Shown here: positions 25,869 through 42,374 of the stretch, piece after piece | How the letters are laid out: the number at the start of each line of letters is the position of its first letter | Position numbering within the stretch: position 1 is the first letter of the stretch | Source: Calditrichia bacterium | GTDB taxonomy: Bacteria; Calditrichota; Calditrichia; RBG-13-44-9; J075 | Assembly (NCBI GenBank): GCA_050633245.1 | Contig: JBOEGD010000007.1 | Location: forward strand, 251,624-315,623 | Length of the DNA: 64,000 nt | Reading direction: 5' to 3' | The notes under the pieces: generated by a model | What the model saw: the letters and a program-made list of their open reading frames with translations, nothing else | The model's database searches: none | What the model was told of the DNA's origin: nothing | Made by a program: the position numbers and the translations under genes

Positions 25869-26887
25869 GATTTTACGCTCCGCTTTTGACGTCTGCGCTC
25901 GGTAAAAACAGCTTCAATCAGCAGTATGAGAAGCGCAATAGCCAGAACAATCTGAAATCGATCCTCGAACTGTGTGAACTCCCTGGAAGACAGTTCCTTT
26001 TTTTCCATACCTGCAATTTCATTAAAGATTCGAGCAAGCTCGGTGTTTCCAGTGCTCGCAACAAAAAATTGTCCACCGGTAGCAAAAGCAATTTTTTCCA
26101 GCGTTTCCACATCAAGCCGAGTTGTTACAATTTGTCCGGTATTATCCTTCAGATAGCCAATTCGTCTGCCACGGCGGTCATATTCTGGAATCGGTGCACC
26201 CTGGGGAGAGCCAATTCCGATAGTATAGATTACCATTCCAGCCTGAGCCGCCTCTTCTGCAATGGCAACCGGATCACCTTCGTGGTCTTCACCATCGGTT
26301 ATTAAAACGAGCACCTTGTGCTTCAGTTCCTTTTTCACAAAAGCTTCTGAGGCCGTGTTGATCGCTTCGGAAACCGCTGTTCCAGGCTGGGGAATGTCCC
26401 CTACTTCCACATCACTCAAAAAGAGCTTTGCAGCGCTATAATCAAGCGTTAATGGGCATTGTACAAACGCCAACCCGGAGAACGTAATCAATCCCACACG
26501 ATCCCCGGCGAGTTTATCAATAAATCGGGATATTTCATGTTTGGCCTTTTCAAAACGATTCGGGGCAATGTCCTCTGCGAGCATGCTTTTGGATATATCC
26601 AGCGCAATGAACACATCAATGCCTTCGCGCTTCACCTCTTCAAACCGCGTCCCAACCTGGGGATTAATCAGAGCTAAGATTAATAGGCCAATTGCCAGAA
26701 ACAGCAAGATTTGTTTCCAGATTTGACGCGTTTGGCTTACGCCGTTCATCAATCGCTCAACGAGTTCAGCGTCACCAAGTCTGGCAATCAGACTCTTTTT
26801 ATAGCGCCACGCCCAAACCAGAAAGACGCCGAGCAGTGGCAGCAGCCAGTAGAGGTGAAGGAAAAATGGATTTGCTATTCGTAACAT
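25865..26887 (-). CDS. batB: VWA-domain membrane protein BatB
   Basis: BatA-type N-terminal TMs, MIDAS DISKS, ITDGEDHE, PLTLDY. Confidence 0.9.
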   Translation of the reverse strand: MLRIANPFFLHLYWLLPLLGVFLVWAWRYKKSLIARLGDAELVERLMNGVSQTRQIWKQILLFLAIGLLILALINPQVGTRFEEVKREGIDVFIALDISKSMLAEDIAPNRFEKAKHEISRFIDKLAGDRVGLITFSGLAFVQCPLTLDYSAAKLFLSDVEVGDIPQPGTAVSEAINTASEAFVKKELKHKVLVLITDGEDHEGDPVAIAEEAAQAGMVIYTIGIGSPQGAPIPEYDRRGRRIGYLKDNTGQIVTTRLDVETLEKIAFATGGQFFVASTGNTELARIFNEIAGMEKKELSSREFTQFEDRFQIVLAIALLILLIEAVFTERRRQKRSVKS

Positions 26888-26941
26888 TGAACTATCAATT
26901 TATGATTTATTAGCGGTTCATTTACTATTTAGCTACAGACC

Positions 26942-27075
26942 GTGATCGGTGATCGGTGATCGGTGATCGGTGATCGGTGATCGGAATTTATTGTTTGGCA
27001 AGAGCATGCACCAGTTTAAGATTTTTCATTGCCCATTGCCCATTGCCCATTGCCCATTGCCCATTGCCCGTTACA
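26942..27075 (+). repeat. Two opposed heptamer arrays: (GTGATCG)x6 at 26942-26983 and (CATTGCC)x6 at 27027-27068 plus a degenerate unit
   Basis: Read directly from the batA-batB intergenic sequence. Confidence 0.97.
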
Positions 27076-27081
27076 CGTTGT

Positions 27082-28071
27082 CTAGGGTATCTTACGCAAC
27101 CAGGTGTTTGCCAAAATCAGCTCCAGCAGGAGCAACCCCAAAGCAGCAAGGATAAAATTAACAAACAGCTCTTCGTAGCGCGTGAATTCTTTTACTTCGA
27201 TCTTTGTTTTCTCCAGCTCGCCAATTTGATCATAAATATCGCGCAGAGCCGTAGTATTGGTCGCACGAAAATACTGCCCGCCGGTAATGGTCGCAATCCG
27301 CGTTAACAATTCTTCATCAATCTCTACTTTTACCGGAACATAGCGCTTGCCAAAAAATGGATCATCAACCGGGACCATTGCCGTGCCTTTTGTTCCGGCA
27401 CCAATCGTATAGACTCGAATATTGTAGGTATTAGCGACCTGAGCAGCAGTAACCGGATCAATTTCACCCGCATTGTTTTCGCCGTCGGTCAGCATAATAA
27501 CCACTTTGCTGGTGGCCTTACTATCCTTCAAGCGTGCAACGGCTGTGGCCAAGCCATTTCCGATAGCTGTGCCATCCCACTCACGTGGTGCAGTTTCCGT
27601 CTTATCTAATATTTCCTGCAACACACCATAGTCGAGCGTTAATGGACACTGGCTGAATGCCTCGCCGGCAAAAATAACAAGCCCAATCGGATCGTCTCGG
27701 CGCCCGGCAATAAACTCACCTGCGACTGTTCTGGCAGCAGCCAATCGATTCTTCGGCTTAAAATCTTCTGCAAGCATCGATGTGCTCACGTCAATCACCA
27801 TCATAATATCTATGCCTTCTGTCAACACCTCTTCCTGCTTGCTGCCAGACTGTGGACGTGCAATGCCCAAAATCACCAGCGTAACTGCCGCCAGCCTCAG
27901 CAATGGAAGGTATCGCCGGAGAATTTGGCGCAGGGATGCGGGTATCTGCTTAAGATGCCGTAAGGTAGAGAACTTCATTTGTCCACCCGGGCGACGACGC
28001 CAGTAATAAACGACCAGCAAAGGCAGCAGTGCCAGTAGCGCAAGATACTCGGGATTTGCAAATCTAAACAT
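27082..28071 (-). CDS. batA: VWA-domain membrane protein BatA
   Basis: MFRFANP, MIDAS DVSTS, GTAIGNGL, LTDGENNAGEIDP, TGGQYFRAT. Confidence 0.92.
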   Translation of the reverse strand: MFRFANPEYLALLALLPLLVVYYWRRRPGGQMKFSTLRHLKQIPASLRQILRRYLPLLRLAAVTLVILGIARPQSGSKQEEVLTEGIDIMMVIDVSTSMLAEDFKPKNRLAAARTVAGEFIAGRRDDPIGLVIFAGEAFSQCPLTLDYGVLQEILDKTETAPREWDGTAIGNGLATAVARLKDSKATSKVVIMLTDGENNAGEIDPVTAAQVANTYNIRVYTIGAGTKGTAMVPVDDPFFGKRYVPVKVEIDEELLTRIATITGGQYFRATNTTALRDIYDQIGELEKTKIEVKEFTRYEELFVNFILAALGLLLLELILANTWLRKIP

Positions 28072-28201
28072 AGCGCATTATGAATTTATGATTTATTAAT
28101 GATGATTTATTAGTAACTACTCAGAAAAGGACAGTAAGAACTTGCCCTATTCACGTTTAGAACACACAAACCTTCGACAATAACCAGTTCGCACATTCTG
28201 T

Positions 28202-28223
28202 CTTCGACTGCGCTCAGCCTGAC
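28202..28223. repeat. Single REP-like element CTTCGACTGCGCTCAGCCTGAC
   Basis: From memory, resembles the GTCA..CTGAGCG.AGTCGAAG repeat family of Bacteroidota-like genomes. Only one copy is in the window. Confidence 0.45.
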
Positions 28224-28244
28224 GCGGAATAATGTCTTGCCTTC

Positions 28245-29228
28245 TTACCTCTCGCTACTTGCCTCGGCTTCGCCCTCTGAATCTTCAACAACTTCCATAC
28301 GCTCAACTGCCTCAAATTCCAGCATTGTTCTTTCAATAAAGGCGCGCACCAATTTCACGGTGTCTTGCGTTTGCGGTTCCGATGGAACAAATTTGGCAAA
28401 CTTAACCAGATCGCAATTTGTAAGTGACTTTTGCAGATATTCGATATCATCTGCTGAAAGGTCGGCATCATTCATCGAGTTCAACAGTTCGCCCGTCGTT
28501 TCTTCCATCGCTTTGATGTAATAGCGTCCTTCAACATAACGTCGTAGAATATCAGACAGCATGGTAAAGAAACTTTTATGCTGCATATTTTCCAGCAGAT
28601 CGCTCTGTATAAGCGTATCTAACTCTTCCAGTGCAATCTCATGCGCCGGACGAATAACTTCTTTGCGAAATACGGGACCTTCGCCATTTTGCTTTCGATA
28701 ATACCACCAATTACCAAATGCTAGTCCGGCAATTAGCAGCAGACCGCCGACTATAAGCAGCCACTTTAGCCAATCACCGGGCAAATTAAACGGTGGTTTA
28801 ATGTCTCGGAGCTCAATATCGCCTTCTTTCAGAATACTCTCTACATAAATTTCCAGCGGCTCGGAGGTGATAAATTGTTGCTGGCTATCAGGGGACATAA
28901 ATGCAATAGGAAATGGAGGAATAACGTATGTGCCGGTATCAAAAACAGAAATGGTATAAGTAAACATTTCTCTTACCCGACCATCTTTGACCAACGGCTC
29001 TGCTACGGAATAGTCTTTAATCTCGAACGAGCCAAGATTTGCAGCATCACCCGGTGTTCGAATATCGAGGTTCTCGGCACGGTCGATCACCAGAGAATAG
29101 ACGATGCGATCACCAATCGTAATTCGATTGCGGTCGACCGCGGCATCTACCTCAATCAGCGACTGTCCTACCAGAGGAAGAATGCTGATAATGGCGAGCA
29201 GCAAAAGATGTAGCCGTTTTAAATTCAT
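28245..29228 (-). CDS. Bat-operon membrane protein (BatD-like Ig domain + TM + helical C-domain)
   Basis: Signal peptide, VDRNRITIGDRI, FDTGTYVIPP, LRDIKPP, TM, PAHEIAL...DLVKFAK. Confidence 0.8.
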   Translation of the reverse strand: MNLKRLHLLLLAIISILPLVGQSLIEVDAAVDRNRITIGDRIVYSLVIDRAENLDIRTPGDAANLGSFEIKDYSVAEPLVKDGRVREMFTYTISVFDTGTYVIPPFPIAFMSPDSQQQFITSEPLEIYVESILKEGDIELRDIKPPFNLPGDWLKWLLIVGGLLLIAGLAFGNWWYYRKQNGEGPVFRKEVIRPAHEIALEELDTLIQSDLLENMQHKSFFTMLSDILRRYVEGRYYIKAMEETTGELLNSMNDADLSADDIEYLQKSLTNCDLVKFAKFVPSEPQTQDTVKLVRAFIERTMLEFEAVERMEVVEDSEGEAEASSER

Positions 29229-29241
29229 TCTTTTAAGCAGC

Positions 29242-30135
29242 CTAACGCACTCGTTTCGAACGCATTTTAAAAAAATGCGTCAATGGCTTCACATAGGATT
29301 TATCTGTATAGATGTCAATATAGTCCATACCTATTGAGCGAAAGAACTTCTCAAGGCGCATTTTCTCACGCGATGTATTTTGGGCAATCCCGTCACGCAC
29401 CGAACGCACAGACGTGTCTATCAGGCGAATTTCGCCCGTCTCCAAGTCTTCCAATTCCAGCAATCCGACCGATGGAAGTGCTTCCTCCAGCGGATCAATG
29501 ATGTGTACGCCGACCAAATCGTGTCGCTTATTGGCGATTTGCAGATCCTTTTCAAACGCGTCATCCAAAAAGTCGCTAATCAGAAAAACCGTGGCGCGAC
29601 GCTTTTGAATTTGGTTCAAATATTCCAAGGCAACAGCAATATCGGTTTTGGTCGCGCGCTTATGTGCTTCATCGTATTCCACAAAAAGCAGTTCACGAAT
29701 AACGCGCAGCACGTGTTGGCGTCCTTTTCGCGGAGGAACAAATTTATCAATGGTGTCGCTGAATATAATCAGCCCAACCTTGTCATTATTCTTTATCGCA
29801 GAAGATGCCAGAAGAGCGGCAATTTCCGTAGCAATTAGACCTTTCATATTGCCGCGACTGCCAAAGACTTCCGAAGAGCTGCTATCAAACAGAATCATTA
29901 CCGTTAACTCGCGTTCCTCCTCGAAAATTTTCACGAACGGATGATTCATGCGCGCCGATACGTTCCAGTCTATCGTACGCACGTCATCTCCAGCCTGATA
30001 CTCCCGCACCTCGGAAAACTCCATACCACGCCCTTTGAAGACGGAATGATATTCTCCGGCAAACACCTCGTTCACAACGCCACGAATGCTCAGCTCAATC
30101 TGACGGACTTTTTTTAGAAGCTCTTTGGTTTCCAT
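29242..30135 (-). CDS. DUF58 domain protein
   Basis: GEYHSVFKGRGMEFSEVREYQAGDDVRTIDWNVSAR, FEEEREL, ISDFLD. Confidence 0.95.
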   Translation of the reverse strand: METKELLKKVRQIELSIRGVVNEVFAGEYHSVFKGRGMEFSEVREYQAGDDVRTIDWNVSARMNHPFVKIFEEERELTVMILFDSSSSEVFGSRGNMKGLIATEIAALLASSAIKNNDKVGLIIFSDTIDKFVPPRKGRQHVLRVIRELLFVEYDEAHKRATKTDIAVALEYLNQIQKRRATVFLISDFLDDAFEKDLQIANKRHDLVGVHIIDPLEEALPSVGLLELEDLETGEIRLIDTSVRSVRDGIAQNTSREKMRLEKFFRSIGMDYIDIYTDKSYVKPLTHFFKMRSKRVR

Positions 30136-30139
30136 ATAC

Positions 30140-30208
30140 CATTGATGATTGATGATTGATGATTGATGATTTAGTAATTCATAACTAATAATTCATAATT
30201 CATCAATG
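30140..30208 (+). repeat. Opposed heptamer arrays (ATTGATG)x4 and (AATTCAT-like)x4
   Basis: Fills the MoxR-DUF58 intergenic space; the termini CATTGATGA/TCATCAATG are a perfect inverted repeat. Confidence 0.93.
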
Positions 30209-30209
30209 T

Positions 30210-31199
30210 TTATGGCACTTCAACGTGATTCAATACTCGGCGAACGATGTCTTCCGAGGTTACTTCTTCCGCTTCAGCTTCGTAGGTCAATAACACGCGA
30301 TGACGCAAGACATCAAGTCCTATTGCCTTAATGTCTTCAGGCGTAACATAGCCGCGGCGGCGCAGGAAGGCATGTGCTTTAGCAGCAGCCTTCAGGCTTA
30401 ATGAAGCACGTGGAGACGCGCCAAATGCCAACAACGGCTTTAAATCGCGCAGACCATAGCTTTCAGGGTCACGGGTAGCAAAGACCAAATCCACAATATA
30501 GCGTTCGATCTTTTCATCCATATACACTTGGTTGACCAACTTCCGCGCAGCAACAATTTCTTTCGGCTTAACAACCGCCTTTGTCTCGAGAGCAGCCCCA
30601 TCGCCCATTTGGCGAATAATCTTAAGTTCTTCATCCTTGGTAGGATAACTGACGCGCAACTTCAGCATAAATCGGTCTACCTGGGCTTCGGGCAGCGGAT
30701 AGGTTCCTTCCTGCTCGATTGGGTTTTGCGTCGCCATAACCAGGAAGGGGTCTTCCAGCTTATAGGTTTCGTCGCCAATGGTAACCTGGCGTTCCTGCAT
30801 CGCTTCAAGAAGCGCGCTCTGAACCTTGGCTGGAGAACGGTTTATCTCATCTGCTAATATGAGGTTGGCAAATATCGGGCCTTTATGAGTCGTAAAGGTG
30901 CCGTTTTTCTGATTGTAGATAAGAGTTCCCAACAGGTCTGCCGGTAGAAGGTCCGGCGTAAACTGAATGCGATTAAACTTGCCATCGATGACCTTGGCAA
31001 CGGTGTTTACCGTAAGCGTTTTCGCCAGACCGGGTACACCTTCCAGCAGAACATGCCCATTGGCAAGCAGGCCAATAACCAAGCGCTCAACCATATACTT
31101 CTGGCCGATGATAACTCGTCCCACCTCGCTGAGAATTTTTTCAACGAACGCACTTTCCTGCTGTATTTTTTCGTTTATCGCTTGAATATCGATTTCCAT
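30210..31199 (-). CDS. MoxR family AAA+ ATPase
   Basis: LLEGVPGLAKT, RIQFTPDLLPAD, LADEINR, ATQNPIEQEGTYPLPEAQVDRF, GASPRA. Confidence 0.97.
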   Translation of the reverse strand: MEIDIQAINEKIQQESAFVEKILSEVGRVIIGQKYMVERLVIGLLANGHVLLEGVPGLAKTLTVNTVAKVIDGKFNRIQFTPDLLPADLLGTLIYNQKNGTFTTHKGPIFANLILADEINRSPAKVQSALLEAMQERQVTIGDETYKLEDPFLVMATQNPIEQEGTYPLPEAQVDRFMLKLRVSYPTKDEELKIIRQMGDGAALETKAVVKPKEIVAARKLVNQVYMDEKIERYIVDLVFATRDPESYGLRDLKPLLAFGASPRASLSLKAAAKAHAFLRRRGYVTPEDIKAIGLDVLRHRVLLTYEAEAEEVTSEDIVRRVLNHVEVP

Positions 31200-31208
31200 G
31201 ATGCCTCC

Positions 31209-32138
31209 TTAGGACGGACTGTTTTGTTCAAGCAAAAAGGATTCAATTGCATTGTATATGCTGCTAAACTCTTCAGGTTGCAGCTTCTTACCGGCAAAAC
31301 GCACCAGGTCGACTGTGGCCAGCGCATTTCCCAGCTTATCAGATTGCGAATTTTTTAAATCAGATGCGTTTACTGCAGCAAGCAAGTCTGTTGCTGTTTC
31401 CGTTCCACGCACGCTTTCTATCTTCGATGATAAATATCCAATAAACAATTTGGCAAGCTTCAGCACCATTTCATTTAGATTCGTACCCTTAGGGTCTATA
31501 TCTTGTGCAATTTGCTTCAAAAGCACTTCTTCTTCGGTCGCATTCTCAGCAGCAGAATCGGACTCTCTGGCTCTTCTCTTCTTCAAAAAGATCAAAATAA
31601 AATAACCAATCGTAAGCAGAAAAATACCGAGCAATACCATGTAAATCAGTGAAGAGACTGCATCGCTGCCTTCTGAAACCGGCGCAACAATTTCAACCAT
31701 TACGCGCTGTGAAACCAGCTTATCGGAAGCGCCGGTTTGGGTATCACGATAGTTAACCTCAAGGCCATCGATATAGGCCATTCCCTGTTCTACCGCTCGT
31801 AATTTGTAGGTAATCATTTTAGTCGAACGCAGACCACCGCTTTCAACCGGATCGAGTCGATTGGTTGAGCCACTGCCTTCCATTAAGAGATTGGTGAGCA
31901 CAGGTTGTGGGATCCCTGAAATTTGATAGCGGCTCATATCGCCGCTCCAGGAAAGCTCTAAATGGAAAAGAACATTTTGATTCAATGGAATCTGACCAGA
32001 GTCGACATAAGCCCGAAGTGCAATAGAGCTGGTCTGCTGGGCGACAGCCAGTGAATCTGCGCGTAGCGGGTACGCACTAATCAGAAGAAATGCGACGGCA
32101 AGGAGTCGTTGTAAAATAGTAAATGCGTTGCGTGTCAT
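31209..32138 (-). CDS. BatD-like Ig domain + TM protein, architectural paralog of 28245..29228
   Basis: Signal peptide, beta-rich domain, TM followed by KKRR, C-terminal DLVRFAG (compare DLVKFAK). Confidence 0.7.
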   Translation of the reverse strand: MTRNAFTILQRLLAVAFLLISAYPLRADSLAVAQQTSSIALRAYVDSGQIPLNQNVLFHLELSWSGDMSRYQISGIPQPVLTNLLMEGSGSTNRLDPVESGGLRSTKMITYKLRAVEQGMAYIDGLEVNYRDTQTGASDKLVSQRVMVEIVAPVSEGSDAVSSLIYMVLLGIFLLTIGYFILIFLKKRRARESDSAAENATEEEVLLKQIAQDIDPKGTNLNEMVLKLAKLFIGYLSSKIESVRGTETATDLLAAVNASDLKNSQSDKLGNALATVDLVRFAGKKLQPEEFSSIYNAIESFLLEQNSPS

Positions 32139-32322
32139 TATAGTCTCAACCGTAGCGGGTATCCGTCAGTCTCTAATTACCATCTCCGGGTAGTTGACGA
32201 CAATGTGCTTAAAAAAGTTTTATCCGGAAGATTTTAACAGGAACCTGAAGCGCATAGGCAGCCTTCAGATTCCTGAATACTGTTGTGGCAACAGCAAGCC
32301 CGACCTATTGGTCTGAAGAACA

Positions 32323-32721
32323 TTAATTTGCCGAGGGCTTATCGCCAGCTGGCTGTTCCCCGCCCAGGAAGGGTAGTTCCTCAACCGGCTTACCCAAATT
32401 GGTAAGCTCATATTGAGCGTCGTCTGCCAAATCGTGTTCGGGAAACTTCTCAATGAACTTCGAGTAGTATTCTTTTGCGCGATCAAAATCTTTAAGATGG
32501 TTTGCATTGATATACCCAACCATAAACAGCGACTTTGCGGCATAAACCCCTTCGGGGAAGTCGGTAGTAATACGAGCAAAGTTCTCTTCAGCCTTCTGCC
32601 AATTTTCCTGTCCCATATACTGCTGAGCCTGATCAAAATAGTCTTTTTCACTCAGCTTATCTTCGCAGGCAGTAAATAGCAATCCAAAGAGCGCTACCAG
32701 TAAAAGCCAACGTGATGTCAT
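32323..32721 (-). CDS. TPR lipoprotein (BamD/YbgF-like)
   Basis: SD GGAGG before ATG 32721; lipobox FTAC; TPRs ITTDFPEG and FIEKFPEHDLADDA. Confidence 0.8.
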   Translation of the reverse strand: MTSRWLLLVALFGLLFTACEDKLSEKDYFDQAQQYMGQENWQKAEENFARITTDFPEGVYAAKSLFMVGYINANHLKDFDRAKEYYSKFIEKFPEHDLADDAQYELTNLGKPVEELPFLGGEQPAGDKPSAN

Positions 32722-32762
32722 ATCGCCTCCTAAAGCAGATTTAAATGTTGACATAGGCGCTA

Positions 32763-32791
32763 AATATATCGGCTAGGCGTCAATAAAGCAA
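32763..32791 (-). promoter_or_regulatory. Putative sigma70 promoter for the TPR/MoxR-bat operon
   Basis: TTGCTT-17 nt-TATATT on the minus strand. Confidence 0.45.
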
Positions 32792-32847
32792 GTATAAAAG
32801 GCAGGTTTTGAAGGGCGGTGGGTAACAGATGATGTGAACGAATAGGA

Positions 32848-32875
32848 AACGGGTCGACACACGGGTCGACCCGTT
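32848..32875. terminator. Hairpin (terminator or REP-like) after the secreted protein gene
   Basis: AACGGGTCGAC-ACACGG-GTCGACCCGTT, an 11-bp perfect stem with only a short U tail. Confidence 0.6.
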
Positions 32876-32890
32876 AAAAGATCCGGGCTT

Positions 32891-33976
32891 TTATTTCAAA
32901 AGCACCATCTGTTTAATCTGCTGAGAGCCACCGGCAGACAAACGATAGAAATATATCCCGGCAGGTAAGTTTGCGGCATCAAAGGCCACACGATGCTGCC
33001 CGGATGTATGAAGTCCGCTGGCAAGTGTAGCAATTGCCTGACCGGCAACATTGTATACTGTCAACTCAGCCTCCATTGCGCGCGTCAGCTCATAGGCAAT
33101 TTCCGTAGTTGGGTTAAACGGGTTCGGATAGTTCTGATTTAACTGAAATCCCTTAACAGCCCTTTCTCTGTCCTCTCCAATTCCGGTCAGAGAATTTACT
33201 CGAAAATTAACAAACTCTGCCTGAGTAAAGTTCGGATTTGATTCATTATCCTGGCTGGTAACAATTGCCAGCGGACCAAACTCCTTGGTCACCCACTCAT
33301 ATTGAATATAGGTTCGCATGCTGGAAGAGATCGGCACACCGTTCACCACAACGGAAGTAAACTCTTGAACATCGCGGCGGATTCGTATTACATCAAAACT
33401 ACCAGCAGGGATTTCCATCGTGCCATAAGCATCATAGTTTCCATTAACGATACTGGAGTCGATACTCAGGAAAATACCGGGAATGCCAAAACGCATGACG
33501 TGAGTACTGGCAAATCCGTTACCCAATTGAATTGGAAAAGCTGCCAGCACTTCCTCGGGATCAAGCTTCAATGTAAACGTTGTATCAAGAGAGGAACCGC
33601 CTCCGCCATAGTAGCGAATATCGGCCGGGTTTATAGAAAAGAAAAAGTCGATGTTAATTGAATCTTCTACAAAGCTATAAGCGAAATTTGCATCAGGGAA
33701 TTCGCTGCTGAATGGACTGGTGGCGGGATCAACAATATTAAAGTCAAAGACCGTTCCATTTGGATACATCGTCTCATTAAATGTCCAGGTTTGCGGCCCG
33801 CCAGCCATACCAACATTAACGGCTTGCAAACCACCCTCAGATACTTCATAGTTACTATATGTATCACCAAAGTTTGGTGTAAAGTCACTTGAGTTAATCA
33901 CGATCTGACCAGATGCAAGCTGTGAAGCAAAAAGCAAAGTCGTAATTAGGGTAATAACGGTAGAGAATTTTTTCAT
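32891..33976 (-). CDS. Secreted protein with a C-terminal sorting (T9SS type A-like) domain
   Basis: Signal peptide; C-terminal LNQNYPNPFNPTTEIAY...LTVYNVAGQ...LPAGIYFYRL...MVLLK; SD AAGGAG. Confidence 0.85.
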   Translation of the reverse strand: MKKFSTVITLITTLLFASQLASGQIVINSSDFTPNFGDTYSNYEVSEGGLQAVNVGMAGGPQTWTFNETMYPNGTVFDFNIVDPATSPFSSEFPDANFAYSFVEDSINIDFFFSINPADIRYYGGGGSSLDTTFTLKLDPEEVLAAFPIQLGNGFASTHVMRFGIPGIFLSIDSSIVNGNYDAYGTMEIPAGSFDVIRIRRDVQEFTSVVVNGVPISSSMRTYIQYEWVTKEFGPLAIVTSQDNESNPNFTQAEFVNFRVNSLTGIGEDRERAVKGFQLNQNYPNPFNPTTEIAYELTRAMEAELTVYNVAGQAIATLASGLHTSGQHRVAFDAANLPAGIYFYRLSAGGSQQIKQMVLLK

Positions 33977-34127
33977 CAAGGAGCTCCTTTGTAGGTGTTT
34001 GTATTCGCAAATAATCTATAAGGACGAAATATAGCCCTATCTGACTCAAAATAAATTATTGCGTTTCCACCTATTAGGAGTAGTAGACGTTAGTATTTCT
34101 CTCATGAAAGGTAAAACCGACAGTCTG

Positions 34128-34169
34128 CAATGAATAATGAACAATTGACAATGAACAATTGACAATGTT
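34128..34169 (+). repeat. Degenerate heptamer array CAATGAA/CAATTGA x6
   Basis: CAATGAA TAATGAA CAATTGA CAATGAA CAATTGA CAATGTT, 12 nt past the GT2 fusion stop. Confidence 0.9.
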
Positions 34170-34181
34170 AATAACGTATTC

Positions 34182-36272
34182 TTATTGGGATTGGAAAAGC
34201 CCGAGGATGGCACGGAAGATAATCTGAATATCCAAAAAAACCGATTGATTGCGAATATAGAAGAGATCGAACTGCTCGGCATCTTCCGGAGATTGGATGC
34301 GGTTTTTATTCAGCTGCACCAAACCAGTAATGCCCGGTTGATACCAATAGTCTGTATGTTCCACAGCGTTATTTGATTCCTGAATAACCGAACCAACCAG
34401 CGATAGCCTCCCACGCACCACTTCCCAAAGTTGTAACCAGCGATTCAGTAGCGCTGATCGAGACAGACCTTCTACTTGAAGAATGTTCAACTCCGGCTCC
34501 GTTCGACTGTAGATATCCAGCCGGTGCAAGCGTTTAACAAACAGTAATAAACCCGGCAAACAAAATATGCCAAGAAGTATCAAGCTAATCAAGCCGACTC
34601 CCATATCCATAACGCGTTTGCTAAGCCGATTAAATGGCTTACCGATGGCATAATCAACTTCAAGAAGTGGATAATCGTCCAGTCGTTCGATGGTCGACTT
34701 TCCAATTAAAAACTCCAGGTTTGCCGGGACAATTTTATATTCCAGCTGCGGCAGATCAATTTGGCTCATCGTCTGCAATATCTGTTCATAACTAAGCACA
34801 TCCGAGGCAAAAATCACCTGTTGAGCGCGATGAATGCGAATGAGTTGATCCAAATTTTCCAACCTACCCAAAACCGGAATGTCTGCATCGAGCAACTCGC
34901 GGTTCTCATCAGACGGAGTTACTGCACCAATCATATTGTAGCTGATATCGCGCAGGTCGCGGATTTTCTGCCAGAGCATTACCAGTCCGGCTCCACTTCC
35001 TACGAGCAAGGTAGGTCGAATAAAAATATCTTTACCCCATGCCGAGCGATCACCCTTAAAGAAATTTCGCAACACCTGACGCCAACCAATCATAAGTAAG
35101 GGAGTTGCAATTGCAGCCAGCAATACAACGCTTCGAGAGAAGGCGAATTGCTTTAAGAAAAAGGTTAGACAACCCAAAATGGTAAACGTAAGCAGAGTAT
35201 TTTTAATTATCCCCTGAATGGAAAGACGCTGTCGCGGATACACTTCCAGATAGGTTCCGCCCAAGACAAAGATGAACGAAGAAAGCGCATTAATCACCCA
35301 GTATTGCGAGAAGAAGTCTGCCCATAGGAAACCATCTTTAAACTGAAGTCGAATAATAAACGACACCAGAAGAACGATGTTAAGGATAAATAAATCCAGG
35401 ATTAGCGGAAAGTGTTCACGCAGAAAATTGCGGGTGTAAATAAACACCCCCCGTAGCACAATACCGATGACGATTAACCAGCGAAATAAAAAGATGCTGC
35501 CCTGCGCATAATATTTATCGAAAAATTGATAGAGAGCTTTGTTGAAGGTAACCACATAATCCACGTTGTTCTTCTTGGTACTCTCGCCCTTGTAGTGGAT
35601 AATCTGCGTCGTAGGAACATAATAGATGGTATGTCCGGCCTCGTTTATTCGATGACATAGATCGATGTCTTCGCAGTACATAAAGAATCGCTCATCAAAA
35701 TATCCGATTTCATCCAGCACGGCCTTTTTTACCATCATAAACGAACCAGAGATTGCCGGAACCGGATAGGTTTCATCCGGGTCGAGATAGGTAAGGTTAT
35801 AGCGAGCAAACAATTTGCTTTTAGGGAAAAGCTTACTTAAACCGGTCACCTTCCAGAAGGCAATCATTGGTGTCGGAATGCTATGGCGGCAATCGACAGC
35901 AAATGAACCATCCGGGTTAATGATTTTACAGGTAGCAGCATCAGCTTTAGGCTCCGACTCAAAAAATGCCAATAGTTTCGAGAACGTATCTTCCTGAACA
36001 ACGGTGTCCGGATTTATCATCACGACGTATTCACCGCGAACCTGTTCTAGGGCAAGATTGTTTGCTCTGCCAAACCCGAGATTTGTTTCGCTTGCAATCA
36101 TTTTCACATCTGGAAAGCGATTGCGAATATGCGCTACGCTATCGTCTACAGAGGCGTTATCTACTACAATTATTTCATTGCTGATATTCTCCAACGAGCG
36201 TTCCAGAGATAGCAATAGCTGCTCTAAATACTCTTTCACATTATAGTTGACGATAACAAAGGAAAGCTTCAA
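34182..36272 (-). CDS. GT2 glycosyltransferase fused to a degenerate WcaJ/WbaP-like module
   Basis: IVNYN, VVDNASVD, NLGFGRANN, INPDT, FDERFFMYCEDID; then TMs, Rossmann-like LLVGSG, KRVMD and PGITGLVQ. The DELPQ and GPRP motifs are degenerate. Confidence 0.88.
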   Translation of the reverse strand: MKLSFVIVNYNVKEYLEQLLLSLERSLENISNEIIVVDNASVDDSVAHIRNRFPDVKMIASETNLGFGRANNLALEQVRGEYVVMINPDTVVQEDTFSKLLAFFESEPKADAATCKIINPDGSFAVDCRHSIPTPMIAFWKVTGLSKLFPKSKLFARYNLTYLDPDETYPVPAISGSFMMVKKAVLDEIGYFDERFFMYCEDIDLCHRINEAGHTIYYVPTTQIIHYKGESTKKNNVDYVVTFNKALYQFFDKYYAQGSIFLFRWLIVIGIVLRGVFIYTRNFLREHFPLILDLFILNIVLLVSFIIRLQFKDGFLWADFFSQYWVINALSSFIFVLGGTYLEVYPRQRLSIQGIIKNTLLTFTILGCLTFFLKQFAFSRSVVLLAAIATPLLMIGWRQVLRNFFKGDRSAWGKDIFIRPTLLVGSGAGLVMLWQKIRDLRDISYNMIGAVTPSDENRELLDADIPVLGRLENLDQLIRIHRAQQVIFASDVLSYEQILQTMSQIDLPQLEYKIVPANLEFLIGKSTIERLDDYPLLEVDYAIGKPFNRLSKRVMDMGVGLISLILLGIFCLPGLLLFVKRLHRLDIYSRTEPELNILQVEGLSRSALLNRWLQLWEVVRGRLSLVGSVIQESNNAVEHTDYWYQPGITGLVQLNKNRIQSPEDAEQFDLFYIRNQSVFLDIQIIFRAILGLFQSQ

Positions 36273-38791
36273 GACTTTCCTCCTTCCCTTTTGCCCGGCT
36301 TATGGACAATTAGCAACAGACTGCGAAGCATGACGCGCACATCAAGCATCAGAGAGATATTCTCAGCATAAAAGATATCTACCTTTAAGCGTTCCTTCAG
36401 AACCTTCTGAGATTCATTGAAACGATAGCGTACTTGTGCAAGGCCTGTCACCCCGGGCCGCACCATCAAGCGACGATGCAGGAACTGTAGCTTATGTTGA
36501 TTGGTACGGTACCAATCAAGTGATTCCGGACGAGGTCCAACCAAACTCATATCTCCGCGAAGCACATTGTAGAGCTGCGGAATACGATAGAGTTGGGATA
36601 GGTATAGTCGACTACCGAATTTTGTCAGTTTAGTCGAATTTGCTTCCCCCTGATAGACAGTTTCAGTAATGCGATTCGGCTTACCCAGGCGAAACAACAC
36701 CATGTTAAATATCCGGCCATTTCTGCCAAGAATTGGAATGCGAACCAACACCCCTTTTCCAAAACGACCGCGAATTAGAAAACCAACTGGCAACCAAATC
36801 GGCAGTAGTATCAGGATTGCCATAGCAGACAAGAATATATCCATTAGCCGTTTTACCACCCACTGACCCAACACCATGTTTTCTGGAAAGACACGCACTA
36901 AGCCATGCCCGGCAAGTCCTGGTGTTTTGCCGGAAACTATTTCCCCCAGAGCCGGCAGCGTTTTAACAACCACCTGCAGACGGTCGCAGATTCCAATAAT
37001 CTGGAGTAGATCCTGTCGGGAGCGGCCGCTGATCGTCACAATAATTTCCTGAATACGATGTTGTTGAATGAGATTAGGCAAATCCTCGTAGCTGCCCAAA
37101 ACCGGATAGTCACCAAACTCACCGCCATTCGCTTTGCGATCGACAACACCGACAATTCGGTACAGAAGATGATCATTTTTTTCGATATCACGAATGATAT
37201 TGCGCGTCTTCCGGGTGGTTCCAATCAGCAGCGTATTTTTGAACGTATACTCCCAGAGATGCAGGCGCTTCTGAAATTCGATGATTAATAAACGCAGTCC
37301 GTTTACACAGACAATCATTACCAAACAATAAAAGCCAAGAGTATAAATTTGATTGCGATTGAGTGGCGACTTATCTGCCTGACCGAGGAGCAAATCCAAG
37401 TTCATTAACAGCAGAAAGAAGAGTGTGCCATAGCCGATTACTTTGGAGACACGTAACAACTTATCGAAACGACTGACATCCCAGCCCATGCGATACAGCC
37501 CGTTCATCCAAAAAAGCAGCAGCCAAAACCCGGTAAGAAATAAAAACGCCGGATTTTCCAGGTATTCCCAGAGGGCTTTATTTTCTTCTGCGAACTGCAT
37601 TCCAGATTGAAAGCGAAACCAAAAGGTAAGATACAGTGCCAGGAACATCCCCACGATATCGGATGTAAAGATAGCTATCTGATGCCAAATGCGATCCAGG
37701 TTTATCGGCGGACGTAGAGCAGCCGGCGTTTTGGTTTCATCTAATCCAAAGCTGACAATCTGCCGCGTTTCCACATAGCCAAGTCGCCATGCCCAAAATA
37801 ATGAGCAAGTAAGCGCTATTAAAAACAGAAAGGCGCCGGCAAGCTCCTGATAAAACACCATTAGCACACCAAGGATCGTATATAGCAGCGTTAGATAATA
37901 CATTAACCAAACGGTATCAATATGTGTCAATCCCAACTTTAGCAGGCGATGATGAATATGTTCTTTATCAGGCTTGAAGGGATGATCACCCCGGCCCATT
38001 CGTCGCAGGAAGGAAATGAGGGTATCAGTTATCGGCATACCCAAAAGCACGAGAGAAGCAAGAAAGTACACCTGATGACTTCCGGCGACTTTTAGCCCTT
38101 CGATTGACAAGCAGGCTAACAGATAGCCCAGCATCAGACTGCCAGTATCTCCCATAAATATGGATGCCGGGTGATAATTATGTTTGAGGAAACCAATTAT
38201 TCCACCAATAATTGCAACCGAGAGCACCGCGAGAAAGACGTTTCCTTTGATGAGTGCAATAGCCATAAATCCACTGCTGATAATCAAACTAATGCCACCG
38301 GCAAGGCCATCGAGACCATCTAATAGATTCACGGCATTGATGATAAACATAATCCACAGGATGGTAAATGGATAGCTAAACCAACCCAGAGCTAACGTTC
38401 CCTGCTCCGGGCCATAAAAAGCACCTATCAAACAACCGCCGCTGGCAGCAATAAATGCGGCGGCAAACTGTCCGCCAAACTTCTGCAGAGCAGATACGCC
38501 CTGAATATCATCTACAAATCCGGTCACCAGAATAATTATTAAACCAACCCAGAAATGCCAGGTTTGCAGCCAGGTATCGGTTGGCAATACACCAATTAAT
38601 GTAGCGACACCTACGCTTATCAGGAGACCGACAAAAATGCCGAATCCTCCCATAATAGGCTTAAAGTCTGTATGGATTTTTCGGGCACTGGGCAGCGCAC
38701 CGATGCGGAATTTCAGAGCCATCTTCCGGATGGCACCAACCGCCAGCAGTGAAGTAAAGACAGATGTTAAAAAAACTGCAATCGTCGCCAT
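36269..38791 (-). CDS. WecA/TagO-like polytopic phosphoglycosyl transferase fused to a WcaJ/WbaP-like module
   Basis: PIMGG, GFVDD, NAVNLLDGLDGLA, IFMGDTGS, HIHHRLL; then TMs, LLIGT, KRLMD, GDMSLVGPRP, RPGVTGLAQV. Confidence 0.9.
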   Translation of the reverse strand: MATIAVFLTSVFTSLLAVGAIRKMALKFRIGALPSARKIHTDFKPIMGGFGIFVGLLISVGVATLIGVLPTDTWLQTWHFWVGLIIILVTGFVDDIQGVSALQKFGGQFAAAFIAASGGCLIGAFYGPEQGTLALGWFSYPFTILWIMFIINAVNLLDGLDGLAGGISLIISSGFMAIALIKGNVFLAVLSVAIIGGIIGFLKHNYHPASIFMGDTGSLMLGYLLACLSIEGLKVAGSHQVYFLASLVLLGMPITDTLISFLRRMGRGDHPFKPDKEHIHHRLLKLGLTHIDTVWLMYYLTLLYTILGVLMVFYQELAGAFLFLIALTCSLFWAWRLGYVETRQIVSFGLDETKTPAALRPPINLDRIWHQIAIFTSDIVGMFLALYLTFWFRFQSGMQFAEENKALWEYLENPAFLFLTGFWLLLFWMNGLYRMGWDVSRFDKLLRVSKVIGYGTLFFLLLMNLDLLLGQADKSPLNRNQIYTLGFYCLVMIVCVNGLRLLIIEFQKRLHLWEYTFKNTLLIGTTRKTRNIIRDIEKNDHLLYRIVGVVDRKANGGEFGDYPVLGSYEDLPNLIQQHRIQEIIVTISGRSRQDLLQIIGICDRLQVVVKTLPALGEIVSGKTPGLAGHGLVRVFPENMVLGQWVVKRLMDIFLSAMAILILLPIWLPVGFLIRGRFGKGVLVRIPILGRNGRIFNMVLFRLGKPNRITETVYQGEANSTKLTKFGSRLYLSQLYRIPQLYNVLRGDMSLVGPRPESLDWYRTNQHKLQFLHRRLMVRPGVTGLAQVRYRFNESQKVLKERLKVDIFYAENISLMLDVRVMLRSLLLIVHKPGKREGGKS

Positions 38792-38870
38792 ATCATCCCT
38801 GGCTTTGTGAAAAAGCACTAATCAAGGTAATCTAAAGTACCGGCTGGATTTGCACAAGGGAAATAGAAGG

Positions 38871-38896
38871 GACGGGGTGACGGGGTGACGGGGTGA
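38871..38896 (+). repeat. Octamer array (GACGGGGT)x3 upstream of the four-helix-bundle gene
   Basis: Read directly. A complementary arm GTCACCTTGTCA lies at 39353-39364. Confidence 0.9.
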
Positions 38897-38962
38897 TTAT
38901 CCAAAATTTTAGCTGTCTTCCAGAATATATAGTAGGCAACCAAGAGTAAAGGTGGAACAGAT

Positions 38963-39340
38963 ATGAGGAAAATCAGAAGTCACAAACGGCTTCTTGTGTA
39001 CCAAAATGCTTTTGAGGCGGCAATGTTAATTCTTGAATTATCCAAAACTTTCCCAATCTCAGAACGCTTTGAGCTCACAAACCAAATCAGAAGATCGTCA
39101 CGCTCGGTATGTGCAAACCTTGCTGAGGCCTGGAGAAAGAGGCGATATAAAGCAGCCTTCATTGCTAAACTAAGCGATTGTGAATCAGAGGCTTGCGAGA
39201 CACAGGTTCATTTAGAATTCTCTGTACGGTGCGGTTATCTGAATGAGGACACTTCTGTAGAATTAAATAAACAATACGATCATATTATTGCTCAATTAAT
39301 TACAATGATTAGAAGTTCAGACAAGTGGGTTACTGGCTAA
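38963..39340 (+). CDS. Four-helix-bundle protein (23S rRNA intervening-sequence protein family)
   Basis: HKRLLVYQ, FPISERFELTNQIRRSSRSVCANLAEAW, F...L....SEACET.....F...CGYL; 125 aa; antisense to both neighbours. Confidence 0.93.
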   Translation: MRKIRSHKRLLVYQNAFEAAMLILELSKTFPISERFELTNQIRRSSRSVCANLAEAWRKRRYKAAFIAKLSDCESEACETQVHLEFSVRCGYLNEDTSVELNKQYDHIIAQLITMIRSSDKWVTG

Positions 39341-39368
39341 CCTTTTTTCTTAGTCACCTTGTCAATTT

Positions 39369-41036
39369 CTACCTTCCATAATTCAGAGTTATGTTAAAAC
39401 GATTGGCTGAAAGATCGGCGGTATCTTCATCTGCTGCAATGCGAGCAAGATTACTTTTTTCAAAGCATCCGGTTAAAAACAGCAAATGTGCGATTTCGTA
39501 GCTGGCCTCAATCCCCCACTCCGTGAGTTTGTTGTAACGAAATAAATCGTCGGACAAAAAACCTGGTCTCGGCAACTGATACTGCTGAACGGTTGTTCCT
39601 TCATCGCCGTTGCGAACGCGTCTTCCCCAAATGGAAGCCTGTACGCCGCGGCGAATGCGATAGTTTAACTTGCCATACCAGGAATCACTGTTATTACCAA
39701 TCCAGTGTCCCAAGCGATAATTACTGCTGGTATAGGTGGTAGACGGGATAAAGTGTTGATATACGAATGGATTAATCCGGCTGTATTCCCCGCTGATAGT
39801 CAGATTGTCAATTCCCGGATCGGTGGTTGATGCACCAATAGTCCATGCAAAACTATTGATCTGCTTCTCTGCGTTAAAGATATCGCCTACCGCAACGTCG
39901 TCCATAAAGAAGTCGAGGAACAGGTGCGTATTAGGGACGTGATCTCGTGAACTGAAGGCTACGAAAAACTGAGCATTATCTCCTGCACTATTATCGCGAT
40001 TGGAAACTAAGTGGTCAGTAAGTCGATAAAAGTTCAGCGGCATTAGATAAGCCAGCTCCAATCGATCGCTGTAAACCATGGATTCACCGATGGCAAAGCG
40101 AAAGCCTCTAAATGGACGAAGTGTTAGCGTATGCGAGGCAATATATTTGTCGCGGAATACTTTGCGCAAGCGACCGTCTTCCAACAGATAGCTTCGGGAA
40201 GAATCAACTTGAACGCTCTCGAGCCACCCGTGAAAATAGTTAAAACTAATCCACTCGGCAGGCTGCAAATCTAATCTTAAGAATGGAAATGAAGGCGCTT
40301 TAGTAGAGAGTACCACATTACCGTCCTGCGCATATCCCCAGGTCATAACATCTTTACCAATAGCAAAGCTACCCCAGTCCCAGCCTGTGGCGATATAGTT
40401 ATTTGTCTCACTGTATTCGATCGACTCGTTCTCATCTTGCGCATCGAGAATTACACCCGTCTCGCGCGAGAATGCTTTGGTACGATCAATGTTATCGCCT
40501 TTTTCAAGATTATCACGAAAGTCGAAGCTGTAGGCGAGATAGTCCGTCAAATATCCTTCCAGTCGGATACCATTCCAGCGATGGCTTTCACTCTCGCCAT
40601 CGTTTTGCCCAATTTCCTGACCATAGATTGGATCGCCATTCAGTGTAAATCGTTCGTCATGATACGAAAAAAAACGCCAGCGATCTGCCTTATCTTTACG
40701 AAGAAGTCCAAATTCATAGCCATCAGGTTTCTTCTTTGCAATACGCTCCACTTCGGGGTTAAACTCACGCATCAAAAAGTTAAGTTCATCGCGATCAACA
40801 GCGGTAAGTTCGTCGCTTTTCTCCTGCGCTTCTAATAGCTTGCGAGCAATATAATCTCGTCCTACTGGCTTAACCACATCGTTAAACTCGACAATGCCCT
40901 TCTGGCTCAGCCGTTCCATAAACGTATACACTTCGCGGTGCAGCGGCTCGAATACGGGCTGGCTGAAAGAATAGCTGGAAGCCAGAAGTAAGAAGGCAAG
41001 AGCTGATAATTGATTATTGATAAATGATAATTTCAA
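39369..41036 (-). CDS. Outer-membrane protein, capsule assembly Wzi-like
   Basis: Signal peptide, alternating beta strands, GKD.MTWG...VVLSTKAPSFP, LGHWIGNNSD; lies in the polysaccharide locus. Confidence 0.7.
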   Translation of the reverse strand: MKLSFINNQLSALAFLLLASSYSFSQPVFEPLHREVYTFMERLSQKGIVEFNDVVKPVGRDYIARKLLEAQEKSDELTAVDRDELNFLMREFNPEVERIAKKKPDGYEFGLLRKDKADRWRFFSYHDERFTLNGDPIYGQEIGQNDGESESHRWNGIRLEGYLTDYLAYSFDFRDNLEKGDNIDRTKAFSRETGVILDAQDENESIEYSETNNYIATGWDWGSFAIGKDVMTWGYAQDGNVVLSTKAPSFPFLRLDLQPAEWISFNYFHGWLESVQVDSSRSYLLEDGRLRKVFRDKYIASHTLTLRPFRGFRFAIGESMVYSDRLELAYLMPLNFYRLTDHLVSNRDNSAGDNAQFFVAFSSRDHVPNTHLFLDFFMDDVAVGDIFNAEKQINSFAWTIGASTTDPGIDNLTISGEYSRINPFVYQHFIPSTTYTSSNYRLGHWIGNNSDSWYGKLNYRIRRGVQASIWGRRVRNGDEGTTVQQYQLPRPGFLSDDLFRYNKLTEWGIEASYEIAHLLFLTGCFEKSNLARIAADEDTADLSANRFNITLNYGR

Positions 41037-41136
41037 GATATATCTCTGTTCTGAGTTCGGAGTTCTGAGTCAGGTAATCTCTGACCATCTCTCACTGTTT
41101 CTGACCGACCCTCACTGTATCTCACTATTTCCGCCT
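41004..41136 (+). repeat. Three adjacent short-unit arrays (7, 7 and 10 nt)
   Basis: TGATAAT-like x4 (41004-41031); GTTCTGA/GTTCGGA x3 (41048-41068); ATCTCTCACT-like x5-6 (41077-41136). Confidence 0.8.
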
Positions 41137-42374
41137 CCGTTCACTGCCGCTTGCAAAACCTCAAGGTAATCTAATGCCAGCTGATCGCGATTAAAGTAAT
41201 CTTCTACAAACCGTCTGCCATTCTTACCAAGCTCTTGACATGTTTCCGGATTATTATATAGCTTTAATATGCCGTCACGCATTGCGTTAGGATCTTCCGG
41301 TGCAACAAAATGTCCGGCCTTGGCAGAATGAACAACAATTTGACGTGCCTCACCGTCTACACTGATGAGAATAGGCTTTGCAACCGCCATAATCTCAAAC
41401 ATTTTTGACGGAATCACGCAGCGAAACAGATCCAGATCCCGCAGTGTTATTAGCACGATATCACACATATTATAATAATCCGGCAACTCCTGCTTATCAA
41501 TTTGACTGAGCATTGTTACATTGCCCAGCTGTAGTTCTTCTTTCATTCGCAGCAGCTTTTCTTTTTCTGCTCCCTCGCCAACCAACAGAAAATGAATGTC
41601 TTCATTTTCTTGCATCAGGGCGGCAGTTTCCAGCACTTTATCTAATGCGTGAGACAAACCATGTGTTCCAATATATGAAATAACAAATTTATCCTTTAAA
41701 CCAAGTTTTTTGCGTAAATCAGCTTTAGCTTCGGCTGGATGGAATAGCTCCAGGTCAACACCATTTTTAATGATATGGAGCTTCTCACGGTTAATTCCCT
41801 TTTGCTCAATTATCGAAACGGATGATTCAGTAACTACCACGACATCCTTCGCCTTCCGATACAGAAACACCTCCATTGCCTCCAGAACGCGGATAATGGT
41901 GCGGTTCTTTAGCTGCCCAAGCTGTACAATAGACTCCGGCCAGAGATCGCGCACTTCAAAGATAAATGGCTTCCACTTAATGATACTCATCAGATATCCG
42001 GCAACAGCAACAAAAAACTGTGGGCTGGTTGCAATGATAATATCTACCGGACCGGTTCGCCAGGGTCCCAAAATTACAGAACTGAACATAAAGGATAGAT
42101 AGCTAAGAATACGCTTAAAAAAGCCCTTGTTAGCAACCGGATAAATGTAGGTACGGATAACGTCAATTTCGCCGTTCTTTTCGCGCTTATACAAGTGTTG
42201 CGGATAATCCGGTGGAATAATACCGGTCGGGTGATTTGGAAAGGCCGTTACAATTGTTACTGAGTGCCCCTCATGCGTCCACTTACGCGCCAGTTCGAAC
42301 GTACGTGCAGAGGGCGCGCCCATTTCCGGCGGAAAATATTGTGAAATGAAAAGGATGCGCAGTTTCGATTGCAT
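41112..42374 (-). CDS. GT4 glycosyltransferase (WbuB/WcaI-like)
   Basis: ISQYFPPEMGA, TAFPNHPTG, EVRDLWPES, NGVD, IPSKMFEIMA. Confidence 0.9.
   Translation of the reverse strand: MQSKLRILFISQYFPPEMGAPSARTFELARKWTHEGHSVTIVTAFPNHPTGIIPPDYPQHLYKREKNGEIDVIRTYIYPVANKGFFKRILSYLSFMFSSVILGPWRTGPVDIIIATSPQFFVAVAGYLMSIIKWKPFIFEVRDLWPESIVQLGQLKNRTIIRVLEAMEVFLYRKAKDVVVVTESSVSIIEQKGINREKLHIIKNGVDLELFHPAEAKADLRKKLGLKDKFVISYIGTHGLSHALDKVLETAALMQENEDIHFLLVGEGAEKEKLLRMKEELQLGNVTMLSQIDKQELPDYYNMCDIVLITLRDLDLFRCVIPSKMFEIMAVAKPILISVDGEARQIVVHSAKAGHFVAPEDPNAMRDGILKLYNNPETCQELGKNGRRFVEDYFNRDQLALDYLEVLQAAVNGGGNSEIQ

Follow-up and report, generated by a model that had tools for sequence, protein, structure and literature searches.

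We analysed a stretch of 64,000 nucleotides from the genome of a Calditrichia bacterium (GenBank assembly GCA_050633245.1, contig JBOEGD010000007.1, positions 251,624 to 315,623; this whole stretch is called the window here, and positions are counted from its first letter), in which a small gene of the four-helix-bundle family PF05635 lies between arrays of short tandem repeats at 38869-39379. This segment is probably one copy of a widespread insertable cassette, composed of the PF05635 gene and a short upstream region enclosed within inverted arms of tandem units. Comparison between strains, genera and phyla showed that the arms and the gene pass on, by inheritance and by transfer, as a single unit, that the cassette sits in very short spacers beside a start or stop codon, and that the number of arm units changes between strains. 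An earlier note on this DNA had proposed that arrays at six gene junctions are full, empty and half copies of a single element related to the intervening sequences (IVS) of 23S rRNA genes.

The 5' arm of the window copy (38869..38896, + strand) consists of 3.2 copies of the G-rich 8-nt unit GACGGGGT, as delimited by Tandem Repeats Finder (TRF; perfect 8-mer at 38871-38896) and by the stem alignment; since it contains four G-runs, it fits the G-quadruplex motif. The unit GACGGGGT occurs once in the genome, as this arm. The 3' arm (39349..39379, +) is made of pyrimidine-rich, decayed 8-nt units, GTCACCTT and GTCAATTT, and is the complement of the 5' arm, 7 of the pairs on the + strand being G-U. 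Between the arms lies a gene for a protein of 125 amino acids (38963..39340, +), whose open reading frame (ORF) matched PF05635 (E 1e-27; 96.9 bits vs a Pfam cut-off of 33.8) and TIGR02436 (95.4 bits vs a cut-off of 24), bearing out its earlier assignment as a four-helix-bundle gene. The protein is similar in sequence to the solved Xanthomonas S23p protein XCC0516 (PDB 2gsc, E 2e-11) and to 2rld. The gene is antisense to the wzi-like and WecA/sugar-transferase-like genes that flank the cassette, and the neighbourhood is one of capsule and glycosyltransferase genes. The spacer from the 5' arm to the start codon (38897..38962, +), delimited from printed upstream regions, holds a variant of a TTTTCAAAA-type motif and is possibly the cassette gene's own promoter. 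The pattern TT[CT]AAAA was found 40-75 nt before the start in eight of the genome's other nine copies (in the copy on contig C1 only at -15), and the window spacer, read by eye, carries the variant ATCCAAAATTTT. Among 31 printed upstream regions of relatives the pattern was present in two (-23 and -16) and in none at 40-75 nt; in relatives the 5' arm frequently abuts the start codon.

The genome (6.35 Mb in 59 contigs, 45% G+C, assembly 97% complete) contains ten PF05635 genes, one of them broken. In nine of the ten, a purine-rich arm of tandem units lies upstream and a pyrimidine-rich arm complementary to it lies downstream, and this order was the same in all nine armed copies; the arm sequences themselves differ between copies. 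As RNAduplex applied to flanks of 260/220 nt was swamped by long-range noise, pairing was evaluated by a local stem score, which was at least 41 in six of the ten copies vs 3 of 147 control small ORFs. For the window copy the score was 30 (19 Watson-Crick pairs, 7 G-U pairs, 5 mismatches), and the predicted duplex energy was -33.9 kcal/mol on the + strand and -24.3 on the - strand (z about -2.2 and -2.6, respectively). Enclosure of the ORF in a stem of terminal inverted repeats is marginal in this copy and clear for the family. Across 26 related genomes, 18 of 27 usable genes scored at least 32 and 13 at least 41, with unit periods of 6-16. The broken gene (contig C20:99736-100044) contains one TGA and one TAA, and its arms are well paired (stem score 49), so arms can outlive the gene. 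The sole ORF of the cassette is the PF05635 gene and no transposase was found in it. The reverse transcriptase domain RVT_1 gave 0 matches in the 97%-complete assembly, and the possibility that the arms are made by a reverse transcriptase was rejected on this ground. No 23S gene was found in the assembly. Other cargo between arms was likewise rejected: the sole candidate, an ORF of contig C11 (553558-553890), is small and ordinary and lies between two unlike arrays, in a region (553403-554016) where ten copies of GGGAATC precede an ORF of 110 amino acids with a hydrophobic N-terminus, followed by an unlike CCTGTCT array, without a cassette. The ten resident paralogs are 10-51% identical to each other, by which recent spread within the genome was rejected; the window copy shares 21-27% identity with the others and 62% with a copy from another family of the phylum.

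In a scan of species genomes, 553 relatives of the window protein were found, of which the best 80 (57-68% identity) came from Cyanobacteria, Nitrospirae, Desulfobacterota, Planctomycetes, Acidobacteria, Chloroflexi and others, and provided 75 usable loci for arm counts. Arms were present at 60 of these 75 loci, with the purine (G)-rich arm first in 60/60, and arrays lay on both sides at 58 of the 68 loci with full flanks. G-rich units of the GGGGAGAC, GGGGACAA and GGGTGAC types precede the ORF and C-rich complements follow it. Some of the units are identical to the window 8-mer and to the window 3' unit, and some are the classical cyanobacterial STRR1 and Nostoc GGGGA(C/T)T types. In unit sequence, each protein subfamily has its own arms, and these are conserved from phylum to phylum, which does not support the earlier proposal that the architecture of the element is conserved rather than its sequence. 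The ratio of non-synonymous to synonymous substitution rates (dN/dS) was 0.02-0.08 in seven orthologue pairs of the window subfamily, showing that the protein is under strong purifying selection. In a sample of the phylum, the PF05635 family was present in 54 of 56 genomes. This small sample, and the presence of T9SS and Bat genes, agree with a place of the genome in the Calditrichia.

Orthologous junctions were compared for the presence of the cassette, as the earlier note had suggested, and filled, empty and array-only states of one and the same junction were indeed found. At the window junction the gene is absent in all four syntenic genera (~50-60% amino-acid identity), which have a plain hairpin in its place (two genera), a 14-nt-periodic hairpin (one) or nothing (one). 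In a strain whose flanking genes are ~93% identical, the contigs carry the cassette at the same place as in the window, with one extra 8-nt GTCACCTT unit in the 3' arm after 39352 and at least one more unit in the 5' arm, inside which the contigs break. In the same strain, the sequence beyond 41052, at the junction of the GT1 and wzi genes, is replaced by GTGAAA-type units; arrays at that place turn over faster than the genes. Filled and empty states coexist at two cyanobacterial junctions, at which array-only states were also seen and the empty sites are without arms. At the Nostoc junction the cassette is present in two species, four are empty with an AT-rich spacer of 22-32 nt and no arrays, one is array-only with another G-rich unit, and two carry unrelated inserts. 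These inserts (loci L182 and L183; ~3.1 kb and ~1.1 kb) occupy the 25-nt spacer that holds the cassette in N. calcicola (L158); the spacer is an insertion hotspot. At the Scytonema junction (L105), the cassette begins at the stop codon of the neighbouring gene, none of 14 relatives carries the gene, 9 nt stand in place of the cassette at the closest empty site, and in two other species solo arrays occur farther along that spacer. Given that the arms are absent from empty sites and that their units are shared with relatives, arms plus gene form one insertable unit. Beside the Scytonema cassette, directly before the start of the downstream gene, we observed heptamer arrays of AACAGTG and of TAACTGA/TAACTGG (L105:3480-3600); the TAACTGA type is described for Beggiatoaceae and cyanobacteria in the accessible text of PMC4679880.

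Stand-alone arrays were then surveyed genome-wide, a strong array being defined by at least 3 copies and a score of at least 40. The genome contains 359 strong arrays (212 of period 7, 55 of period 8 and 29 of period 14). By crude greedy ORF calls, 262 of the 312 strong arrays of period 7, 8, 10, 14 or 21 lie mostly in the ~10% of the DNA that is non-coding, as do 174 of the 212 of period 7. This excess of arrays is far above chance genome-wide. The heptamer units are diverse (65 canonical heptamers) but related: TGA occurs on the purine-rich strand in 133 of 272 units vs ~11% expected. The common stand-alone units ATTGATG, TCAGAAC, AAAAGTG and GGCAATAG are also arms of cassettes here or in relatives, and some stand-alone arrays are gene-less relatives of cassettes, the array at 30141 sharing the unit of a resident one. 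Most stand-alone arrays are not assignable as cassette remnants, and most do not pair; the commonest 8-mer, with 21 arrays, has no resident cassette. An 'empty hairpin' as the general stand-alone form was rejected, partners within 700 nt being only ~1.5-2 times as frequent as under the null; a partner with a score of at least 36 was found for 44 of 341 arrays (either side) vs 14 of 334 (one side). In the loops between arrays no common motif was found (0/49). Array density was 2.4 per 100 kb in genomes with at most one PF05635 gene and 6.5 in those with at least four, one genome supplying 34 of the 52 arrays of the latter group; in 387 kb from four sampled PF05635-free genomes, no array of period 7, 8 or 14 was found. 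With the family present in nearly all genomes of the phylum, such presence/absence contrasts are few and not independent. A further genome of the same phylum (G039; five 20-kb samples) contains 34 strong short-unit arrays per 100 kb, ~7 times the density of the window genome.

Among neighbouring arrays genome-wide, purine-then-pyrimidine order was seen 49 times and the reverse twice, with 37 in direct order; from either side, the 5'-to-3' direction of the purine- or G-rich strand points to the centre. The claim that a purine-richer arm precedes a pyrimidine-richer one was therefore upheld, here as for the armed cassettes of this genome and of the relatives. The second half of that claim, that this order is antisense to the host operon, was not: the pattern is identical to its reverse complement, so that either strand shows it and it gives no information on orientation to the operon, and orientation inferred from it was rejected. 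Placement of the gene itself was antisense in five of the six resident copies that lie between co-directional genes, whereas relatives outside this genome, by crude ORF calls, were sense in 44 cases and antisense in 13 (38 loci unclassified). Pairing through G-U wobbles on one strand was likewise found locally, namely in the window cassette and at 26942. As a rule it was rejected, since G·T and A·C mismatches balance over 60 loci (counts are given below) and the copies in this genome are mixed, two strongly favouring sense-strand and two antisense-strand pairing.

TRF detected short-unit tandem arrays at all six junctions named by the earlier note, one of them weak. Every array lies between ORFs of minus-strand operons, i.e. 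the Bat/MoxR/DUF58 operon and the capsule/glycosyltransferase block, among which ORF 38963-39340 is the sole plus-strand gene. Outside 24.8-41.1 kb of the window TRF reported no comparable arrays, only rows of at most 2.4 copies, in agreement with the reported lack of arrays in the dcw, ruv and fab regions. Between two BatA/VWA genes, an unstranded, gene-less pair (26942..27069) is formed by GTGATCG (26942-26984) and CATTGCC (27027-27069), each in 6.1 copies of perfect heptamers (100% matches) and separated by 42 nt, with the purine-rich array first and the pyrimidine-rich array second; its unit is matched by no resident cassette arm of this genome. Another unstranded, gene-less pair (30141..30203) adjoins the DUF58 start codon directly upstream and consists of ATTGATG (30141-30171, 4.4 copies) and TAATTCA (30175-30203, 4.1 copies); ATTGATG is also the 5' arm unit of the resident cassette on contig C1. 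Pairing of complementary arms, claimed for both pairs and for the cassette, was borne out only in part. The segment 26935-27075 gave a periodic stem on the + strand only (-39.7 vs -31.7 kcal/mol) and folded no better than dinucleotide shuffles (z -0.63), and 30136-30212 gave a weak hairpin on both strands; in the same folding test the regions at 28072, 34120 and 41000 gave no hairpin. After the stop of a glycosyltransferase gene there is a single purine-rich array (34128-34167, unstranded; period 7 with 5.7 copies or period 14 with 2.3) without a partner arm. Between the GT1 and wzi-like genes (41004..41122, unstranded) lie three unlike arrays, TGATAAT (41004-41032, 4.1 copies), GTTCTGA (41048-41070, 3.3 copies) and one of period 20 with 10-nt sub-units (41080-41122, 2.2 copies), in purine-to-pyrimidine order and not mutually complementary.

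The weak array is AT-rich and lies at 28078-28110 (unstranded; 73-81% matches by TRF), upstream of a BatA start codon. It overlaps an AT-rich leader motif that is also found at 26901-26916, and in part represents this shared motif and not an arm. The motif TTTATGATTTATTA, of ~14 nt, stands at 26901-26916 and at 28085-28100, just upstream of two neighbouring VWA/BatA start codons; it may be a shared translation leader, and it accounts in part for the weak array. A long imperfect tandem repeat at 24794-24983 (periods 9-75, CT-rich on the + strand) falls within the minus-strand ORF 24637-25191 and is a coding low-complexity repeat, not an intergenic array. Rfam 15 covariance models gave 0 matches at E up to 0.1 in 26000-42000 of the window. 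The neighbouring arrays at 26.9-41.1 kb are members of the large class of 7/8-nt arrays that occupies intergenic DNA in this genome. What remains of the earlier proposal of full, empty and half copies is a stem-enclosed PF05635 family outside rRNA, armed in nine of ten resident copies, with array-only and empty states of the same junction in other genomes; that all arrays are one element was not supported.

How such a cassette could be maintained may be pictured as follows. It would be selfish and foldback-like and would encode no enzyme, and its long palindromic arms would act in cis as its ends, in the form of hairpin or cruciform DNA. In host transcripts that run across the cassette, the arms would pair into a stem that RNase III would cleave, as is shown for the rRNA form. 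The protein, a pentamer that binds nucleic acid, would attach to its cognate arm repeats and in this way serve the element, and slippage would expand, shrink and strand arm arrays, giving rise to array-only junctions. A broader proposal, which we make tentatively and as a possibility, is that PF05635 cassettes are cross-phylum, enzyme-less, foldback-like mobile elements whose arms are the source of the intergenic heptamer excess (STRR, GGGAATC, TAACTGA), and that rRNA IVS are copies that landed in 23S genes. The protein would then be the sole factor, recognising its cognate units and exploiting host replication, repair or RNase III to spread, to expand the arms and to leave array-only footprints.

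Several results weigh against the cassette reading. No movement was seen; at 10-51% identity the resident copies are paralogs of old standing, and between strains the locus is stable. No target-site duplication was evident in the filled/empty comparisons at the Nostoc and Scytonema junctions, where the compared species are diverged. The stem of the window copy is marginal, a score of 30 being reached by 7.5% of the 147 control small ORFs. Over 60 loci, 223 G·T and 228 A·C mismatches were counted, with 25 and 24 loci favouring the one or the other, so that there is no sign of a selected RNA stem; the G·T/A·C split by orientation to the flanking genes (65/59 and 29/40) was not significant. Arm lengths on the two sides were weakly correlated (Spearman 0.21, p 0.09, 68 loci), and concerted arm length was rejected as weak. 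Neighbouring arrays mostly have unrelated units. Those of period 7 are barely more complementary than random (3.78 vs 3.61 of 7; 72 pairs), and 51 of 341 strong arrays share at least half of their 7-mers with resident cassette arms, leaving 290 that do not. The link between array density and PF05635 count was weak (Spearman 0.46, p 0.057; 18 related genomes, not independent), and two genomes with a single PF05635 match each (G021 and G147) reach ~7.5 strong arrays per 100 kb, with periods mostly of 9-18, and so depart from any simple dependence on gene dose.

This low complementarity, the many strong arrays without a match to resident arms and the weak link of density to gene count are also what would be expected if the arrays were slippage-prone simple-sequence repeats of any non-coding spacer, in which the genes merely sit and the arms are local inverted repeats unrelated to the stand-alone arrays. 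The bacterial heptamer excess is general and has been attributed to polymerase slippage (Mrazek 2007, as cited in the accessible text of PMC4692102). Slippage in arbitrary spacers predicts no polarity, yet the order of neighbours is 49 to 2; moreover, arm units follow the protein subfamily across phyla, empty sites are without arms, the 387 kb of PF05635-free genomes yielded no array of period 7, 8 or 14, and the stand-alone units ATTGATG, TCAGAAC, AAAAGTG and GGCAATAG recur as cassette arms. We regard the slippage explanation as rather unlikely.

It appears improbable that the arms are an RNA-level device, pairing in the sense transcript of the cassette through G-U wobbles to give a stem that is processed or bound and controls the gene. 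The better + strand stems of the window cassette and of the 26942 pair argue for it, and the stems of rRNA IVS are RNase III substrates (PMC4990558, accessible text), but the balance of G·T and A·C mismatches in both counts and the even division of this genome's copies between sense- and antisense-favouring pairing argue against it. In addition, the promoter-like motif appears to lie inside the 5' arm in this genome's copies, in which case the cassette's own mRNA would miss the 5' arm. Quite improbable, in our view, is a regulon model, in which the four-helix-bundle proteins would be sequence-specific regulators and the dispersed arrays their operators at operon junctions (insulators, terminators or G-quadruplex switches). 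It would account for the strong purifying selection on the proteins and for arrays that often abut start codons, and, read in either direction, the purine-to-pyrimidine order would yield a hairpin and then a U-rich tract. Quadruplex formation in vitro by G-rich heptamers is described in the accessible text of PMC4692102. Arm units also co-vary with the protein subfamily, yet descent of the whole cassette from a common ancestor explains this equally well. Against the model, the unit of the window protein occurs once in the genome, in its own arm, and the commonest 8-mer is without a resident cassette. To our knowledge, PF05635 has no DNA-binding domain.

The cassette can be compared to several known systems. 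Foldback-type transposons (Drosophila FB, Galileo, Tetris) have long terminal inverted repeats of short tandem repeats with variable arm length; they occur as copies with and without an internal coding part, and their arms can seed tandem arrays. The likeness is architectural only, without homology, the cassette being smaller in scale by about ten times; unlike Foldback elements, with their transposase of the P or MULE superfamily, it contains none. From classical transposons and MITEs it differs by the absence of a transposase, by arms that differ between copies and by the absence of an evident target-site duplication in two comparisons of diverged species. Avd of diversity-generating retroelements (DGRs), a small and basic four-helix-bundle protein, is pentameric, acts together with nucleic acid and belongs to a PF05635-related fold family. 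Unlike the DGR case, RVT_1 was not detected in the 97%-complete assembly, and there is no template/variable repeat pair. The STRR repeats of Calothrix are tandem heptamers, and they share with the arrays described here the tandem 7-nt units, the intergenic position, the hundreds of loci and the length variation between relatives. The same holds for the heptamers of Xanthomonas and Beggiatoaceae. The accessible text of PMC4692102 cites the Calothrix STRR and describes GGGAATC/GGGGA(C/T)T repeats of Xanthomonas and Nostoc, the Xanthomonas heptamers occurring as convergent pairs; that of PMC4679880 describes TAACTGA repeats of Beggiatoaceae, Cyanobacteria and Bacteroidetes. The G-rich units at cyanobacterial relatives of the window gene are of the STRR and Nostoc types, whereas the window units differ from named cyanobacterial units (e.g. 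CCCCAGT). The accessible text of neither paper links the heptamers to a four-helix-bundle gene or to an IVS, whereas some arrays here are the arms of such a gene.

A further comparison is with the 23S IVS (Coxiella S23p; Leptospira, Brucella, Xanthomonas), which share with the cassette a PF05635/S23p ORF enclosed by terminal inverted repeats. According to the accessible text of PMC4990558, the Coxiella burnetii rRNA IVS has a 28-bp terminal stem that is cleaved by RNase III and tandem heptamers before the S23p ORF, the number of which varies by strain; the IVS is regarded as selfish and of unknown origin, and its ORF is reported to be decaying. Tandem heptamers just upstream of the ORF, in strain-variable number, are a further likeness. 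In contrast to the 23S IVS, the window cassette lies between protein-coding genes rather than in 23S rRNA (helix 25 or 45), tandem arrays make up the arms themselves, and it is antisense to its host genes. In contrast to the Coxiella ORF, the window gene is intact and its subfamily is under purifying selection.

Heptamer repeats, ORF-bearing IVS and the protein family are each already known; a search of the open literature found no paper linking heptamer repeats to the PF05635 gene family. For annotation, the cassette accounts for small antisense genes and repeat blocks at operon junctions, and for assembly breaks such as those of the related strain, whose contigs end in an arm. If the broader proposal is true, it would give one answer to two puzzles, namely the intergenic heptamer arrays, hundreds per genome, of cyanobacteria, xanthomonads, Beggiatoaceae and this lineage of the Fibrobacteres-Chlorobi-Bacteroidetes (FCB) group, and the nature of the S23p family, large and conserved but without an assigned function, and of the ORF-bearing rRNA IVS. 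A gene that is held at a dN/dS of 0.02-0.08 and moves between phyla with its own arms and no recombinase would represent an unrecognised way of moving or maintaining DNA.

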